From: Escherichia phage mEp515
DNA length: 53,673 nt
Reading direction: 5' to 3' (one strand)
Sequence record: PP180003
The position numbers and the translations under genes were made by a program. Shown piece by piece: positions 20,330-26,031 of the stretch; the first letter of the stretch is position 1; each line of letters starts with the position of its first letter. The notes beneath the pieces are model-generated. The model was not told the origin of the DNA. It did not search any database and saw only the letters and a list, made by a program, of their open reading frames with translations.

Positions 20330-20733
20330 ATGAATATTCTTTTAGCCTGCCTTACCCGCCATCGAACAATCGCTATTACCGACATTCTCGCGGTTTTCAC
20401 TATATTAGCAAAGTGGGGAAGGAATACAGGGAACAAGTAAGAGACATCATCGAGCTATTAAATTTAAACATCAACCTATCTTGCCGACTGGCAATAACTA
20501 TTCATGCCGCGCCGCCTGATAACCGGATCAGAGATCTGGATAATATCCCAAAATGCCTTTTTGATAGCCTTACTTACGCCGGATTCTGGACCGACGACGG
20601 ACAAATCGATTCTATAAAAATTGTTCGCTGCCGGAAGGTGAAAGGCGGGCGATTGTTTATTAAGGTGCGCGAGCGCGGCGACCTGTTACCGGATATTGGC
20701 GAATACGAAACTAATATATGGGGTGAGAAATGA
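20326..20733 (+). CDS. rusA: RusA-family Holliday junction resolvase
   Basis: 135 aa; LPYPPSNNRYYRH, RDLDNIPKCLFDSLTYAGFWTDDGQI, GGRLFIKV match the RusA signature. Confidence 0.9.
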   Translation: MNEYSFSLPYPPSNNRYYRHSRGFHYISKVGKEYREQVRDIIELLNLNINLSCRLAITIHAAPPDNRIRDLDNIPKCLFDSLTYAGFWTDDGQIDSIKIVRCRKVKGGRLFIKVRERGDLLPDIGEYETNIWGEK

Positions 20734-20912
20734 AAAACGAAATTAAAGATCTGCAAATAGATATTCAGCGCGACGAGCTTGATTTAGCTACAGTCAGGCA
20801 AATCCAGGCTTTCCACATGAGAGAATTGCTTGCGCTGAAAGAGCTTGAAAGAAAGTTGGTCCAGTCAATATCTGATCGCAAAAGACTGGTTGCGCGTTAC
20901 GGGGGTAAATAA
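20730..20912 (+). CDS. Hypothetical protein (60 aa)
   Basis: ORF, coupled. Confidence 0.4.
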   Translation: MKNEIKDLQIDIQRDELDLATVRQIQAFHMRELLALKELERKLVQSISDRKRLVARYGGK

Positions 20913-21634
20913 TGAATTTGGAATCTATTCTTAAATTCCATTTCCCAAAGTCACCGCGTTTGTCAGATGAAAGCCGTGGAACATCACCTGATGCACTTAA
21001 TACTACTGATGCACTAACCGCCGCAGGTATGGCGCAATCTCGCGTAGAGCTTGGATATAGCGCTTTTTTAGGGAAGATGGAACTATCACAAGCCGAAAAA
21101 CATAAGGCCGTAGTTTTGCTTATAGAGCGTTTAAAGGCTATGGCAAAAGATTATAAATACGTTATGGAACTGGACGAGGCACAACGCAATGATCTCATTA
21201 TTCTTGTTGCCGTTTTTGCGTTTCGGGATTATTGCCAGAGTGCCGCGACGGAAAAAACTTGCATGGAGTGCGGCGGATATAAATTTACGTTTGACGAATA
21301 CGGTGAAAAACACCTTTGTAAAAAATGCAAGGGGCATGGGACAGTTCGCAATCATTGTAAACAATGCAAGGGCCGTGGCGAAGTACCGGACAAAGCAGCC
21401 AGCGAAGCGACGGAAATGCCAGTATTCAAAACGTGCCAGCATTGCGGCGGGCGCGGTTACTCGCGTTTCCCAGTAGATCTTGTTCGGCAGGCGGTTAATC
21501 AGCTTGTTTTCCCTGTAAGCCGATCAACATGGTGGAAGAAATACAGGGTTTTCTATGAAGACGCCATAGTGGAGCTATTCAAAGAAGAATCTCGCGCGGA
21601 AAGCGAAATCAAACGAGTGACACGGGGTGAATAA
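20912..21634 (+). CDS. Q-like late antiterminator candidate with DnaJ-type zinc finger
   Basis: 240 aa; four CxxCxGxG repeats (CMECGGYK, CKKCKGHG, CKQCKGRG, CQHCGGRG); follows ninG/rusA as Q does in lambdoid phages, but 1.9 kb from the lysis cassette. Confidence 0.4.
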   Translation: MNLESILKFHFPKSPRLSDESRGTSPDALNTTDALTAAGMAQSRVELGYSAFLGKMELSQAEKHKAVVLLIERLKAMAKDYKYVMELDEAQRNDLIILVAVFAFRDYCQSAATEKTCMECGGYKFTFDEYGEKHLCKKCKGHGTVRNHCKQCKGRGEVPDKAASEATEMPVFKTCQHCGGRGYSRFPVDLVRQAVNQLVFPVSRSTWWKKYRVFYEDAIVELFKEESRAESEIKRVTRGE

Positions 21635-21864
21635 TGGAGCTAAAAATCTGGCAGGCTATCGACGTTGTTGATAATGAATTGTCTATGTTCGCCACTAACG
21701 GGAAACGCGTTGTGATCGCTACATGGACTCGTAACCATGATGATATTGCTTTTCGTCGCGCGGCGGCGGAATTGCTTTTCTCTGATGGCGGCTACACGAT
21801 GAACATCGACCAGCTTGCAAGAATGAAAGATGAAAAACTGGTTGATAGCTACACAACTGCTTAA
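21634..21864 (+). CDS. Hypothetical protein (76 aa)
   Basis: ORF. Confidence 0.4.
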   Translation: MELKIWQAIDVVDNELSMFATNGKRVVIATWTRNHDDIAFRRAAAELLFSDGGYTMNIDQLARMKDEKLVDSYTTA

Positions 21865-21874
21865 CGGGGTGAAT

Positions 21875-22108
21875 ATGCGTATCTATGAACACAAGCGGGA
21901 TAAAACCCGCTTTTTTGTTCGTGCTGGAGTGGCGTACCAGTATCACGAATGCGGTTACATTGAGGAGCTTGCTTACGATCTGGACTTCGAGCAAGAAAAG
22001 GAATGGTTCGATTTTAAAATTTACCGGAAGCGCAAACCAACGCGCGACGAGCGACACGCTATCCGTGACTTTTTAATCAGCATTGAACGTTGGGAGACAG
22101 AGGAATGA
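21875..22108 (+). CDS. Hypothetical protein
   Basis: Internal ATG with GGGGTGA SD. Confidence 0.4.
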   Translation: MRIYEHKRDKTRFFVRAGVAYQYHECGYIEELAYDLDFEQEKEWFDFKIYRKRKPTRDERHAIRDFLISIERWETEE

Positions 22109-22332
22109 AGGTAAAATTCTTGCACGATCACGGTTATCCGTCATTGAAACAGGTTGTTGGTAAGGTCGTTGATGTCGTTCATAGCGATGATGTCACTTGC
22201 ATGATTAACGGTGCTGATCTAATTGCCGCTGGTGCTGATGACCATTACATAAATCCAGCGTGGTCGTATACGTTTAGCCTGGGCGACTTCGTTGGCGACA
22301 AGGGGCGCGGGCTGGAAGTGGTCGAGGGTTAA
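22105..22332 (+). CDS. Hypothetical protein
   Basis: ATG 22105; GGGAG upstream. Confidence 0.4.
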   Translation: MKVKFLHDHGYPSLKQVVGKVVDVVHSDDVTCMINGADLIAAGADDHYINPAWSYTFSLGDFVGDKGRGLEVVEG

Positions 22333-22336
22333 CATC

Positions 22337-22585
22337 ATGGACGTTTACGAAGATCTATACCTCCAGACAAACACCAACACTTTTTATTTTCTTAAAAACG
22401 GCGTCGTGTATCGCAGTGACGACGGGGTGATAATGAAAGAGTGGTTATTTAAGCGTGAAGACCTACTCGACGATCTGGTTTTTGCCGGTGTATTTCGTAA
22501 ACGTCCGGCTAACCTGGAAGAAGAAATGTTGATTGAGGTTATTAAAAATGAAAATCAGGGTAAGTTATTTCCGGGCGAAAGATAA
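22337..22585 (+). CDS. Hypothetical protein
   Basis: ATG with GAGGG SD. Confidence 0.4.
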   Translation: MDVYEDLYLQTNTNTFYFLKNGVVYRSDDGVIMKEWLFKREDLLDDLVFAGVFRKRPANLEEEMLIEVIKNENQGKLFPGER

Positions 22586-22799
22586 GGCAACAGGAAAGCA
22601 GGTGGCGATCCTGGTTAACGAGGCGCAGTACATGTTTGTCCTTCAGCCGTGGTGTATGGCTGACTATAGCAGTGATTATCGCCGTCATGCTGCGCGGAGT
22701 GCGGTAGGGATGAAGGGATGGCAACCGCGCGACATGGAAAACTATTGTGAATGGAAATTAGTAGCAAAATACACGGTCGATTATAAAGGGGTTTTCTGA
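22548..22799 (+). CDS. Hypothetical protein
   Basis: ATG with GAGGT SD. Confidence 0.4.
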   Translation: MKIRVSYFRAKDKATGKQVAILVNEAQYMFVLQPWCMADYSSDYRRHAARSAVGMKGWQPRDMENYCEWKLVAKYTVDYKGVF

Positions 22800-22871
22800 T
22801 TAATGTCACTTTCCTGGACGATGCGCGAAACAGGGGCCAAATGGCCCCATTAAACCAGAAGGGGTGGGATC

Positions 22872-23171
22872 ATGAAAAGCGATAAATTCATTGCGTGCTG
22901 TTTTGTCGAAGTTCCTAATGATGATGTTTTCTACAATTATGAATTTAAAGACAGTTGGGGCGGATCTCATGTTGTAGTTGGCAAGCGCGGCGACTGGTTA
23001 TATATCACTGATGGTGACAGGATCTTCACTAAAAACCAGTTGTTAAGAATAAAGGCAGAAAATAATGAAATACCAGTTGGTAATATGGGGATTATGAACT
23101 ACCACGCCTGCCTATGTTTAAAGCAAGATGCGGTAAATAAAGCGCGTAGCTTACCTGGTGCGGAGTTTTAA
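22872..23171 (+). CDS. Hypothetical protein (99 aa)
   Basis: ORF. Confidence 0.4.
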   Translation: MKSDKFIACCFVEVPNDDVFYNYEFKDSWGGSHVVVGKRGDWLYITDGDRIFTKNQLLRIKAENNEIPVGNMGIMNYHACLCLKQDAVNKARSLPGAEF

Positions 23172-23173
23172 TT

Positions 23174-23347
23174 ATGGTTGTGTTCAGGCTATGGCGCGGT
23201 GTTAGTCGTACCGATGGCACGTACAGCCGCGTGATTGAAGATGTAAATCGTGGGCGTTTTTATGAACTGGCATACAATGAGGGAATGGGAAATACATATT
23301 TTGATGAATCTATCCATATGTGGCGGAAGATGGCTGGTGAAGGTTAG
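23174..23347 (+). CDS. Hypothetical small protein (57 aa)
   Basis: GGAG SD; not in ORF track. Confidence 0.3.
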   Translation: MVVFRLWRGVSRTDGTYSRVIEDVNRGRFYELAYNEGMGNTYFDESIHMWRKMAGEG

Positions 23348-23538
23348 CGACCTATGAACGAGATTGAAGACGGTATCTATTTACACAAGGTATTTAACAT
23401 CACCTATTTACTTAGAGGTGAATCGGTGATGATAAGACCTGATGATGATCCGCATTGGGAATCAAGCGACATGGATCGGTGGCATATGCAAACATTACTA
23501 AATAATGGCCTGATATATAGAAAGCCGTAAAGCCGTAT

Positions 23539-23567
23539 TTGTAGAGCGTAAACAAACAGATTAAAAT
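23539..23567 (+). promoter_or_regulatory. Candidate late promoter (pR'-like) just upstream of terminator and lysis genes
   Basis: -35 TTGTAG (23539-23544), 17-bp spacer, -10 TAAAAT (23562-23567). Confidence 0.3.
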
Positions 23568-23594
23568 ATTACCTAACAATGCGAAATTGTAATT

Positions 23595-23620
23595 ACCCGG
23601 CCCCGCGCCGGGTTTTTGCT
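23595..23620 (+). terminator. Rho-independent terminator (tR'-like) preceding holin
   Basis: ACCCGGC-CCCGC-GCCGGGT hairpin followed by TTTTTG. Confidence 0.7.
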
Positions 23621-23637
23621 TTGTTGGAGGTAAATCT

Positions 23638-23838
23638 ATGTTCGACAGAATACGGGAGGCGTGTGCGTATGTGACTGGGGCCGTAACTGCTTTTTTCGGC
23701 GCTATAACCATCAATGACGTCGCTGTTTTCGTTGGTATCTTATCAACCATAGGCACATTTGCCGTTAATTATTACTTCAAATCACAGGAGAACAAGCGGG
23801 CGCAAGAGGAACACGACGCGCGAATGGGGAATAAGTAA
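23638..23838 (+). CDS. Holin, probable pinholin (two TM helices)
   Basis: 66 aa; two hydrophobic helices and basic C-terminus; GGAGG SD; directly precedes SAR endolysin. Confidence 0.65.
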   Translation: MFDRIREACAYVTGAVTAFFGAITINDVAVFVGILSTIGTFAVNYYFKSQENKRAQEEHDARMGNK

Positions 23839-24330
23839 ATGATTAGCCAATCGCTGAAAAACAAGATTGTTGCGGCGGCGGCTGGTGGGGCGATCGCTAT
23901 TGCGGCGGTGATGATTAAGCCATTAGAGGGCGTGGAATACGATCCTTATCGTGATGTTGTTGGCGTATGGACTGTTTGCTACGGTCACACCGGAAAAGAC
24001 ATCATGCTTGGGAAGACTTACACGCAATCAGAATGCGATGCTTTGTTGAACAAAGATCTACATAAGACCGCAAAAGCGATTGACCCATATATCAAAGTCG
24101 AAATATCAGATTTTACCCGCGCTGCACTTTATTCATTCGCCTATAACGTAGGCGCAACCAACTTCAAAACATCAACCTTATTAAAGCTACTCAATGACGG
24201 CAAGAAATCAGAGGCGTGCGCACAGCTTAAGCGCTGGGTATACGCTGGCGGTAAGAAGTGGCAAGGCCTGGTTAACCGCCGCGAGGTTGAATATGCCGTT
24301 TGCGAATGGGGTGAGAAATGGACAAGGTGA
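23839..24330 (+). CDS. SAR endolysin (T4-lysozyme-like, GH24)
   Basis: N-terminal signal-anchor-release segment [17 protein letters not shown]; catalytic E-x8-D-x5-T pattern ([23 protein letters not shown]). Confidence 0.85.
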
Positions 24331-24788
24331 AGACGTTAATCATCGCCGTTGTTGTTTGCATTATTGCCGGACTGATCGCCGTAACGTGTTATTACCAGGG
24401 TGAAACGGCAAGGTTACAGGAAGAAGTCACGGTGACGAAAGGCGCACTGAAGACAGCAAGTAACACTATTCAGCAGATGAAGGAGCGAAACGCCGAACTG
24501 TCAAAACTTGATAAGAGGTATCACGATGAGATTAAAGCTATCAGATCTGACATTGCCGATCTGCGCACTGGCATTGATAACGGTACTATCAGGCTGCGCG
24601 TCAACGCCGTGCCAATGCGAACAGACAGTAATACCGGAACCTCCAGCCGCATTGATGGAGCCACCTGCGAACCTACTGCCGACGCTAAATCGGCTTATCT
24701 ATCCCTCAGAGAACAACTAAAAATAAAAGACGCACAGATCACTGGCCTACAGGACTACATCAAAACGCAGTGCTTACGCAAAGAATAA
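24318..24788 (+). CDS. Rz-like i-spanin
   Basis: 156 aa; N-terminal TM helix then coiled-coil periplasmic domain. Confidence 0.7.
24526..24720 (+). CDS. Rz1-like o-spanin lipoprotein embedded in +1 frame of Rz
   Basis: Signal peptide with lipobox VLSGC, Pro-rich mature part ([16 protein letters not shown]); GAGGT SD. Confidence 0.55.
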   Translation: MRLKLSDLTLPICALALITVLSGCASTPCQCEQTVIPEPPAALMEPPANLLPTLNRLIYPSENN

Positions 24789-25124
24789 CAGCGCGTGGAC
24801 GTGTCGCCGTTTCCGCCAGCCAGCCATAACCGGGCCAATCCTTCCCGCGAGCGACGGCAGAAATTCAAAAACACGTAATACCGGATCAACAGTCCCATTA
24901 ACAGGTCAGGCGCTACCTGGGTAGAAGAAAGCGTCATTACTCACCTGCCATGCGTAGGACGAGCGCCCGGATCTGTTTATCAGAGATGTTAAGCAGGTCC
25001 AGATTTATAAAATTCTGGAAACGGTACTCATGCAGCGCCGTTTTCAGTGTTTTATAGCTGTTTTCACTCCCTGCGGTGTCCAGTTTTGCGGGGGTTATAT
25101 TTTTCAGGATAGAGGAATATTCTG

Positions 25125-25709
25125 ATGGCTAAGGGTAAAGGCATTAAGTTGCCTCAATTCAAAGTTCCGCTCTTTGAGCATACAACAGTTTTCTTCTGCC
25201 CGACCCGCGACATGTTTTATGAATTTTGCGAAAGGGCCGGAATACCAATCGAACCTGATTTCGAACTGGCAGGAGGATTAACGCTTACTTGTACTGGTGA
25301 GAAAGGCGGTAATTTCTATGTGATCGCAGTATTCGACAATGAGTTAGGTACGCTGGTACACGAATGCGCTCACACTACATTCCACGTTCTAAGCGATGTA
25401 GGTGTCGTGGCAACCACTGATCCAACTCATCCGGCAAACGAGACATATGCTTACATGGTAGGCCGTATCTTTGACGCATTCTTCCCAATCCTGGCAGAGT
25501 CAAACGAAGCACAGATTGCAGCAATGCAGGCGGCTGAAGTTGTCGAGAAGGCATTAGATCAGGCAGAAAAGGCGACTGATGCAGCAGAGCAAGCAGTAAA
25601 ACAGGCAGAGGAACCGAAAGAAGAGAAAAAACCAGTTAAGAAAGGCAAACGTAAGCCTAAAGCAAAAGAGGCGCTTGTGCCGCGTGTTATGAGATTTAAA
25701 CGGGGGTGA
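25125..25709 (+). CDS. Hypothetical protein with HExxH motif and polybasic C-terminal tail
   Basis: 194 aa; HECAH zincin-like motif; C-terminus KKPVKKGKRKPKAKEALVPRVMRFKRG. Confidence 0.5.
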   Translation: MAKGKGIKLPQFKVPLFEHTTVFFCPTRDMFYEFCERAGIPIEPDFELAGGLTLTCTGEKGGNFYVIAVFDNELGTLVHECAHTTFHVLSDVGVVATTDPTHPANETYAYMVGRIFDAFFPILAESNEAQIAAMQAAEVVEKALDQAEKATDAAEQAVKQAEEPKEEKKPVKKGKRKPKAKEALVPRVMRFKRG

Positions 25710-25711
25710 TT

Positions 25712-25786
25712 ATGATTGACCCGCTCATTATCCTTTCTGCCTGTGTCGCTGTATGGCTGGCGATCATGATATTCATCGAAAGCTGA
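25712..25786 (+). CDS. Mini-ORF 1, hydrophobic peptide (24 aa, MIDPLIILSACVAVWLAIMIFIES)
   Basis: ATG 3 nt after upstream stop; GGGGG upstream. Confidence 0.3.
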   Translation: MIDPLIILSACVAVWLAIMIFIES

Positions 25787-25796
25787 AGGTGTTCAC

Positions 25797-25877
25797 ATGA
25801 ACGCATACGAAATGCTATTGCTGGTGGCTGTAGTTGTAGTCATTGCCGTTGATTTCTATCGAGGGTTTAAAAGATGA
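25797..25877 (+). CDS. Mini-ORF 2, hydrophobic peptide (26 aa, MNAYEMLLLVAVVVVIAVDFYRGFKR)
   Basis: GAAGGTG SD at 5-nt spacing. Confidence 0.3.
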   Translation: MNAYEMLLLVAVVVVIAVDFYRGFKR

Positions 25878-25945
25878 AAGAAGCAGACTTCTTTTGCATG
25901 ATTGTAGTGATCGTCATCATTGCGGTGATTTTAAACCTTAGTTGA
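25874..25945 (+). CDS. Mini-ORF 3, hydrophobic peptide (23 aa, MKEADFFCMIVVIVIIAVILNLS)
   Basis: ATGA overlap with mini-ORF 2; GAGGG SD. Confidence 0.3.
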   Translation: MKEADFFCMIVVIVIIAVILNLS

Positions 25946-25962
25946 ATCGCAGGGGGTTGAAA

Positions 25963-26031
25963 ATGAAATGGCTTGATTTCTTTTTCCTGATTGTTGCGAT
26001 TGTTCTAACCATGACCGCGCTTGCTCAATAG
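25963..26031 (+). CDS. Mini-ORF 4, hydrophobic peptide (22 aa, MKWLDFFFLIVAIVLTMTALAQ)
   Basis: AGGGGG SD at 6-nt spacing; paralogous to mini-ORF 3. Confidence 0.3.
   Translation: MKWLDFFFLIVAIVLTMTALAQ

Follow-up and report, generated by a model that had tools for sequence, protein, structure and literature searches.

An array of small genes lies between the late antiterminator gene and its probable target site in phage mEp021 and its relatives

We identified an unusual arrangement of the late control region in a 53,673-nucleotide (nt) stretch of DNA from Escherichia phage mEp515 (sequence record PP180003), referred to here in its full length as the window. The gene gp37, encoding a Q-lambda-family late antiterminator, is followed on the same strand by eight small genes (gp38 to gp45), and the probable target of the Q protein, a compact promoter-terminator module, lies beyond them and ahead of the holin gene. 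In all 26 genomes compared, small genes on the same strand follow Q with no intergenic gap behind it and form an array extending to about 100 nt before the holin gene. Between the Q stop codon and the conserved -10 hexamer of the module there are 1,927 nt in the window, which is the shortest example, and 3,027–7,063 nt in the 25 relatives, with a median of 5.5 kb over all 26 genomes. The initial annotation had correctly placed the Q-like gene about 1.9 kb upstream of the promoter-like site; the holin gene starts at 23638.

Between positions 20900 and 24400 the window is 99.9% identical to Enterobacteria phage mEp021 (MH706966), and it is counted as mEp021 throughout. Coordinates of that record minus 700 give window coordinates, and gene product (gp) numbers follow MH706966, in which gp37 is annotated as 'putative late gene regulator Q', followed by eight coding sequences (gp38–gp45), a terminator (TERM_5), a class II holin, a lysozyme and an Rz-like protein. 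The 'mEpimmI' group, of which mEp021 is the archetype, consists of Nus-dependent, non-lambdoid temperate coliphages from human faeces, where they are reported to be as common as lambdoid phages (PMC11893012). The 25 relatives are mEp010, mEp013, mEp044, mEp554, MagusPhagus, four Escherichia coli prophages (those with Q inside the stretch retrieved) and 16 IMG/VR contigs. Array lengths were compared in mEp021 plus the 25 relatives, individual genes in 12 genomes, and the module in an alignment of 25 genomes. As an outside comparison we used 62 IMG/VR loci whose Q-lambda-family proteins are 34–41% identical to gp37.

The product of gp37 (20912–21634, plus strand; 240 amino acids) matches Pfam family PF03589 at 102.9 bits, compared with a curated cutoff of 26.7 (E = 1e-29), and PHROG family phrog_127 (E = 2.9e-78). 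PF03589 is the Q-lambda family (PMC9388147). Lambda Q is 35% identical to gp37 over the full length, and the closest proteins outside the mEpimmI family are the Q proteins of Salmonella phages ES18 and SE1 (38–39% identity). The match to the solved Q-lambda structure (PDB 7UBM, chain Q) extends from end to end (E = 3e-39), with gp37 residues 1–113 and 148–238 aligning with residues 1–113 and 117–207 of the structure. Within this alignment, the part that refolds into the RNA-exit nozzle falls in the N-terminal 113 residues, and the C-terminal 90 residues correspond to the body. Residues G39 and T237 (T206 in lambda) are invariant in the Q alignment, as are all four cysteines of the zinc-ribbon arm (C149, C152, C175 and C178). 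Based on these homologies gp37 is very probably a genuine Q-lambda-family antiterminator with predicted antitermination activity. The earlier suggestion that this zinc-finger protein is something else is not supported for a full-length homolog that scores far above the family cutoff and retains the zinc-ribbon cysteines, and since gp37 would fill the role, none of the small proteins is required as a late activator.

Residues 114–147 of gp37, approximately (window 21251–21360), form an insertion that carries two extra CxxC motifs into the zinc-ribbon arm and is also present in ES18 and SE1. This insertion gives a match to a DnaJ CXXCXGXG-like motif (E = 9e-6), and it is the most variable part of Q within the mEpimmI family.

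The module occupies 23539–23622 on the plus strand and contains a promoter-like site and a strong terminator, both of which the initial annotation had located accurately. The promoter-like site consists of a -35-like hexamer, TTGTAG (23539–23544, three of six consensus matches), a 17-nt spacer, and the -10 hexamer TAAAAT (23562–23567), which is invariant in the 25 genomes. The -35 position is occupied by TTGTAG, TTGTGG or TTGTAT at the canonical 17-nt spacing in 18 of the 25 aligned genomes. Two groups of Q sequences can be distinguished within the family (84–87% versus 91–96% identity to gp37); covariation between these groups and the type of -35 hexamer was sought, and none was found. Within the spacer, the near-invariant segment AAACAAACAGAT (23550–23561; consensus AAACAAAyrGAT in 25 genomes) is present once in the window and is a candidate Q-binding element by its position only. 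The invariant sequence AACAAT (23575–23580) begins 7 nt after the -10 hexamer, in the register of the lambda pR' pause element; it resembles a -10 hexamer itself and is a candidate pause element. Transcription would start near 23575.

The terminator (23595–23622) consists of the hairpin ACCCGGC-CCCGC-GCCGGGT (23595–23613) followed by TTTTTGCTTTG. In a promoter and terminator scan of an 8-kb region it ranks first among the terminator-like sites, the region around it folds at -21.7 kcal/mol, and GenBank annotates it as TERM_5 (window 23596–23612, score 100). The legend of Fig. 7 in PMC11893012 lists t1, t2 and t5 as experimentally demonstrated terminators, and from the agreement in numbering TERM_5 is apparently t5.

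The segment 23550–23622 (73 nt) is 92–100% identical to mEp021 in the 25 genomes, and the neighbouring gp45 falls to 54% amino acid identity. The sequences AAACAAA, GATTAAAATA and CTAACAATGCGAAA, both arms of the terminator stem, and the T-run are invariant. Variation in the terminator is limited to the loop, the stem ACCCGGC/GCCGGGU being unchanged. Upstream homology ends at 23469, 23528 or 23550 depending on the prophage, and the module stays in place; it is also kept in a contig (L035) that has a different holin downstream. We also considered a boxB-like hairpin, ACAAU-GCGAA-AUUGU (23576–23590), and rejected it, as a common T-to-C variant disrupts one of its pairs with no compensating change.

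Other Q-lambda-family phages, when compared with mEp021, support the promoter-terminator pair of the initial annotation as the likely target of Q. Textbooks and structural studies describe the Q switch as a unit with the Q gene immediately beside pR', and the lambda AACGAT at +1 to +6 is a sigma-dependent pause element and the site of Q loading (PMC9388147). The late regions of lambda and P22 read TTGACT-17-TAAATT-TGACTC-AACGAT, and that of phi80, in which pR' is annotated, reads TTGCAT...TAGATT-CATCTCT-AACGCT. The corresponding sequences are TTTACA-17-TAATAT-CGTTTCT-AACAGT in ES18, TTGCAA-17-TATCAT-AACCCT-AACAGT in SE1, and TAAATT-TGCCCT-AACGAT, about 35 nt past the Q stop codon, in a Stx2a phage. 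The mEp021 sequence is TTGTAG-17-TAAAAT-ATTACCT-AACAAT. A regular expression for this layout (a -10 hexamer, 5–8 nt, AAC[AG]nT and an intrinsic terminator) matched 44 of the 62 outside loci, and 17 of the 18 that it missed have the same layout by eye with minor variants of the motifs. The sole locus lacking an obvious Q-adjacent module is L082. The -10 hexamer of the comparison loci lies between -14 and +66 nt from the Q stop codon. A module adjacent to Q, within about 70 nt of its stop codon, is the rule (61 of 62 loci). The mEpimmI family appears to keep the module, but either the module or Q seems to have been moved kilobases away, and in neither mEp021 nor any of the 25 relatives is the Q gene directly upstream of the putative late promoter.

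Considering the position of the module, its conservation and the family comparison, from which alone its weight as a promoter module comes, we think it reasonably likely that 23539–23622 is the target of Q, with predicted promoter activity, pausing and Q binding. The arrangement as a whole is explained, with somewhat better than even confidence, by a delayed-early array combined with a Q protein that acts in trans on a pR'-like module. The small genes (21634–23530) would form the distal end of a rightward delayed-early operon, co-transcribed with ninF, ninG, rusA and Q from the rightward early promoter under antitermination by the N-like Gp17. Such an N-like Gp17 system has been described for mEp021 (PMC11893012). 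Membership of gp38–gp45 in the early operon, with the early timing that it implies, is probable. The segment 23539–23622 would constitute a compact Q-utilisation module made up of a sigma-70 promoter, a spacer that serves as the Q-binding element and, counted from the predicted start, the pause element AACAAT (about +1 to +6) and t5 (about +21 to +45). As long as Q is absent, polymerase starting near 23575 would produce an RNA of about 45 nt and stop at t5, which would double as the end of the early operon. The gp37 protein made from the early transcript would act in trans on this site 1.9 kb downstream, binding the spacer at 23550–23561 and loading onto sigma-70-paused polymerase at AACAAT. 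Polymerase loaded with gp37 would then pass t5 into the holin, endolysin and spanin genes and on into the structural genes.

Several observations weigh against this explanation. The -35 hexamer is replaced by TCGCGC or TCGCAC in 7 of the 25 relatives, including MagusPhagus, a viable isolated phage. The whole promoter matches the consensus at 8 of 12 positions, which is under the threshold of the scan, and it was not called. The candidate Q-binding element resembles no known one. The t5 stem begins 33 nt after the -10 hexamer, compared with 38–182 nt in the 44 comparison loci. The -10/pause pattern carries little information; it is expected 7–14 times per shuffled window and is observed 3–7 times, and the regular expression for it was composed after the sequences had been seen; the chance of finding the pattern within 60 nt before t5 is roughly 0.004–0.008 for this post hoc pattern. 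Two further points concern the operon. The first is a terminator-like hairpin 18 nt inside gp39 (21893–21917, plus strand; AAGCGGG-AUAAAA-CCCGCUU followed by UUUUG), which was found by scanning and folding and might interrupt the supposed single early operon. It folds at -19 kcal/mol (z-score -5.8), is unannotated in MH706966, and has a stem that is invariant in 29 genomes except for one compensatory swap of G-C to C-G at two synonymous sites. This hairpin may serve the early operon as an attenuator or as an mRNA-end element. The second is the presence of gp41 in purified virions, which is unexpected for an early gene product; its GenBank label, 'virion structural protein', rests on mass spectrometry of virions purified on caesium chloride.

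The variability at the -35 position and the lack of space before the module allow a different reading of the site, in which there is no dedicated late promoter at 23539–23567, at least in phages without the -35 hexamer, and polymerase arriving from the early operon is captured at the module. Sigma-70 would rebind at TAAAAT or AACAAT, Q would load from the site next to it, and the late operon would be a Q-gated continuation of early transcription past t5. The small genes do run gaplessly up to the module, and one of the relatives without a -35 is an isolated viable phage. Moreover, because homology in 7 of the 25 relatives starts exactly at 23550, the conserved unit excludes the -35 hexamer. 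However, a hexamer containing TTG is present at the canonical spacing in the other 18 genomes, a duplication of GCCGTATTTGT in the M1/5 prophage keeps TTGTAG beside the module, and in every characterised Q-lambda-family system Q is loaded at a promoter-proximal pause (PMC9388147). We judge capture of this kind unlikely, and a loading site that works without a promoter of its own, at least in the approximately 28% of genomes (7 of 25) that lack the -35, quite unlikely. If real, it would be a naturally occurring example of Q loading at a sigma-dependent pause distal to the promoter, and it would explain why Q need not adjoin its site.

It is similarly improbable that the conserved segment does no more than end the early operon (at t5) and supply holin translation signals and possibly a constitutive holin promoter, with Q acting elsewhere or late genes controlled in another way. 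The promoter and pause motifs are individually weak and statistically not rare, as this reading would have it. It leaves unexplained, however, the 45 invariant nucleotides upstream of the terminator amid diverging flanks and the match in layout to the Q-adjacent module of 61 of 62 loci. A conserved 18-mer of the module is present as a single copy in the 53.7-kb window even when three mismatches are allowed, and no other match to the regular expression immediately precedes a terminator with late genes behind it. We searched the window for a second copy of the module, or for a module next to Q, and found neither.

The small genes themselves could instead be Q-dependent late cargo comparable to stx, transcribed from a pR'-like promoter at the 3' end of Q or in gp38, with the gp39 hairpin (21893–21912) as the terminator. 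A promoter-like site with 9 of 12 consensus positions is present at 21648–21675, the conserved hairpin follows about 220 nt downstream, a distance that resembles the length of the lambda 6S RNA (194 nt), and gp41 is found in virions. Nevertheless, no pause element of the AAC type follows 21648–21675, and none of the genomes examined has intergenic space after Q. In the relatives Q is separated from gp38 by 1.0–2.4 kb of other genes, so no Q-proximal module is conserved. We consider late cargo very unlikely. The possibility raised in the initial annotation that the true late activator is among the small proteins, with gp37 otherwise employed, is extremely unlikely, for although the gene order is unusual and a RegA-like similarity of gp41 has been published, gp37 is homologous to Q-lambda over its full length, the eight small proteins match no regulator family and have no credible hit in Pfam, NCBIfam or PADLOC, and the model of gp41 (mean predicted local distance difference test (pLDDT) score 64.8) has no structural match better than E = 0.3.

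The interval between Q and the holin gene had been described as containing nine open reading frames (ORFs). Eight non-overlapping same-strand ORFs are annotated there (mEp021_38 to mEp021_45), and the remainder are overlaps in alternative frames or a 31-amino-acid ORF that crosses the terminator. In comparisons with 8–11 relatives, third-position and silent substitutions are in excess in all eight, as is typical of real genes; for gp39 the codon changes comprise 148 silent and 33 replacement changes. The genes following Q are all on the same strand and are joined by stop/start overlaps or separated by 2–10 nt, with one exception of 72 nt. The scan detected no internal intergenic promoters in the gp38–gp45 block, and a search of 20500–25500 against Rfam gave only a sub-threshold match to rnk_pseudo (26.5 bits, cutoff 55). 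Searches of gp38–gp45 against Pfam, NCBIfam and PADLOC gave few hits, far below the curated cutoffs, which we take to be due to chance, and the PHROG families matched are all of unassigned function. Similarly, 78 array proteins from four relatives yielded one weak Pfam match, and the PHROG families listed for them lack an assigned function, with the exception of one labelled 'membrane protein'.

Five of the eight, gp38 to gp42, are core genes that occur in all 12 genomes compared gene by gene, with 80–99% amino acid identity, and gp43 to gp45 occur in most. The first, gp38 (21634–21864, 76 amino acids), has a start codon that overlaps the Q stop codon by 1 nt. The best conserved of the block is gp39 (21875–22108, 77 amino acids; 94–99% amino acid identity), an ORFan confined to the mEpimmI family that is represented by 3 clusters among 1.84 billion representatives in an exhaustive HMMER search. 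Homologs of gp40 (22105–22332, 75 amino acids) are found in rV5-like (Vequintavirus-type) lytic coliphages at 41–43% identity over the full length, in about 119 records, some of which carry Campylobacter phage labels. A word-index search for gp40 homologs returned close relatives only. Judging from these matches, gp40 looks like a small gene common to unrelated temperate and virulent phages.

The product of gp41 (22337–22585, 82 amino acids) has homologs confined to E. coli prophages. It has been called 'mislocated' and, from a language-model search, similar to the translational repressor RegA (PMC11893012). Its AlphaFold2 model contains a small beta-sheet, and the Foldseek comparison with the PDB, together with the low confidence of the model, neither confirms nor excludes the RegA-like suggestion. 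The fifth core gene, gp42 (22548–22799, 83 amino acids), is given here in the 252-nt form annotated in the relatives; its GenBank start is later, at window position 22632. The flexible gene gp43 (22872–23171, 99 amino acids) is absent from mEp013 and M1/5. The product of gp44 (23174–23347, 57 amino acids) is a shortened form of the 84–85-amino-acid protein of the relatives and matches positions 1–55 of the 84 in phrog_32200. The last gene before the promoter module, gp45 (23354–23530, 58 amino acids), is divergent (54–90% amino acid identity). All are on the plus strand.

The array consists of 16–28 genes in the relatives. Compared with these, material is missing from mEp021 at four gene boundaries (21622–21638, 22104–22108, 22800–22834 and 23334–23341). 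At the first of these there is a 12-nt repeat, ACGGGGTGAATA, which is found again at the next gene junction, and at the last gp44 is cut to 57 of about 85 residues. Because gp44 is truncated, the mEp021 array is the shortest at least partly through deletion. To judge from the aligned sequences, mEp021 carries a reduced version of the array and not an added one. The block had been proposed to be inserted cargo, and of the two earlier alternatives this comes nearer to the facts insofar as it is the local version of a variable gene array found across the family. It is not a recent insertion into mEp021, because gp38–gp42 are present in all 12 genomes, the guanine-plus-cytosine content of the block (0.40–0.49) is like that of the genome (0.46), and the array is the shortest of those compared. 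The gp38–gp45 block does not fit a moron or recent cargo, of which an atypical composition, a separate promoter and terminator and a patchy presence would be expected; it has the packed same-strand genes, mosaic presence and gene-boundary breakpoints of a nin-region-like array.

Three further features were observed at boundaries within and beside the array. In the E. coli M1/5 prophage (L009, 7775–8000) an extra cassette with a 75-amino-acid ORF separates the gp45 homolog from the promoter module. Copies of the direct repeat GCCGTATTTGT lie on either side of it, which suggests that short boundary sequences mediate the gain and loss of cassettes. A perfect GC hairpin, GGGGCC-AAAT-GGCCCC, without a T-run is present at 22833–22848 (plus strand) in the only sizeable gap of the array, and it travels with the gp43 cassette, since homology to relatives bearing gp43 resumes at 22828–22834. 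The best match to the sigma-70 consensus in the region, GTGACA-18-TATAAT (11 of 12 positions), is on the minus strand at 22809–22780, bordering the 72-nt gap; it faces leftward and is antisense to gp42.

Beyond the array, the module is followed on the plus strand by the genes for the holin gp46 (23638–23838), the endolysin gp47, a lysozyme (23839–24330), and the Rz-like spanin gp48 (24318–24788). On the other side, a 60-amino-acid ORF between rusA and Q (20730–20912, plus strand) is annotated in nine relatives, with 90–98% amino acid identity, and has no coding sequence in MH706966; its overlaps are 4 nt with rusA and 1 nt with Q. Further downstream, the 485-nt gap between gp49 and the small terminase gene contains four tandem, unannotated mini-ORFs of 22–26 amino acids (25706–26031, plus strand), each encoding a single hydrophobic helix, for example MNAYEMLLLVAVVVVIAVDFYRGFKR. 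In the prophages L007, L008, L009 and L013–L015, a portal-sized gene of about 1.37 kb downstream of the large terminase gene is named 'anti-CBASS protein Acb1 family protein' by NCBI. The corresponding mEp021 gene is recorded as encoding a portal protein, and the Acb1 name may be a misleading automatic label.

The components described here are known, and the arrangement is an unusual layout of a well-known switch and not a new kind of switch. We found no description of a Q-lambda-type gene located 2–7 kb from its probable loading site throughout a family, and the paper on the mEpimmI family (PMC11893012) does not discuss the late promoter or the position of Q. A preference of lambda Q for acting in cis has been reported (Echols 1976; Burt & Brammar 1982; both cited in PMC5303824), and the mEpimmI phages provide a natural system for asking whether the timing or the cis-preference of Q depends on adjacency. 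A large and rapidly changing set of presumed early ORFan genes is delimited by this layout as well. As expression of the array is expected to be independent of Q, these genes are candidates for functions in host takeover or anti-defence. With coordinates for the putative late promoter, late control in the mEpimmI phages becomes directly testable.

The closest parallel to the proposed switch is the Q/pR'/tR' system of lambda, with which mEp021 shares a homologous antiterminator and the order of a -10 hexamer, 6–7 nt, AACnnT, terminator, holin, endolysin and spanin. In lambda, however, the -35 hexamer starts 44 nt after the Q stop codon, whereas in mEp021 the -10 hexamer is 1,927 nt away with eight genes between. 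In addition, the predicted terminated RNA of mEp021, at about 45 nt, is shorter than that of lambda, the -35 hexamer is weak, and gp37 has an extra pair of CxxC motifs in its arm. ES18 and SE1 have the same extended Q arm and the same CTAACAnT context of the pause element, and together with P22 they share with mEp021 a short distance between pR' and the terminator, which lies about 40–85 nt from the start. They differ in that Q is directly upstream of the promoter (25–41 nt), and the sequences of the spacer (Q-binding element) are unrelated.

Stx-converting and other lambdoid phages also have kilobases of non-essential genes between Q and the holin gene. In phages of the Stx type the promoter and terminator are next to Q and the cargo is downstream of them, whereas in mEp021 the accessory genes are upstream of the module, so that they should be expressed independently of Q, contrary to cargo of the Stx type. 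The array recalls the nin region of lambda, a series of small, packed, mosaic and mostly dispensable genes in the N-antiterminated rightward operon, and homologs of ninF, ninG and rusA lie just before Q in mEp021. However, the nin region is confined to the interval between P and Q, while the mEpimmI array runs on beyond Q, reaches 16–28 genes in the relatives, and consists nearly entirely of ORFans.

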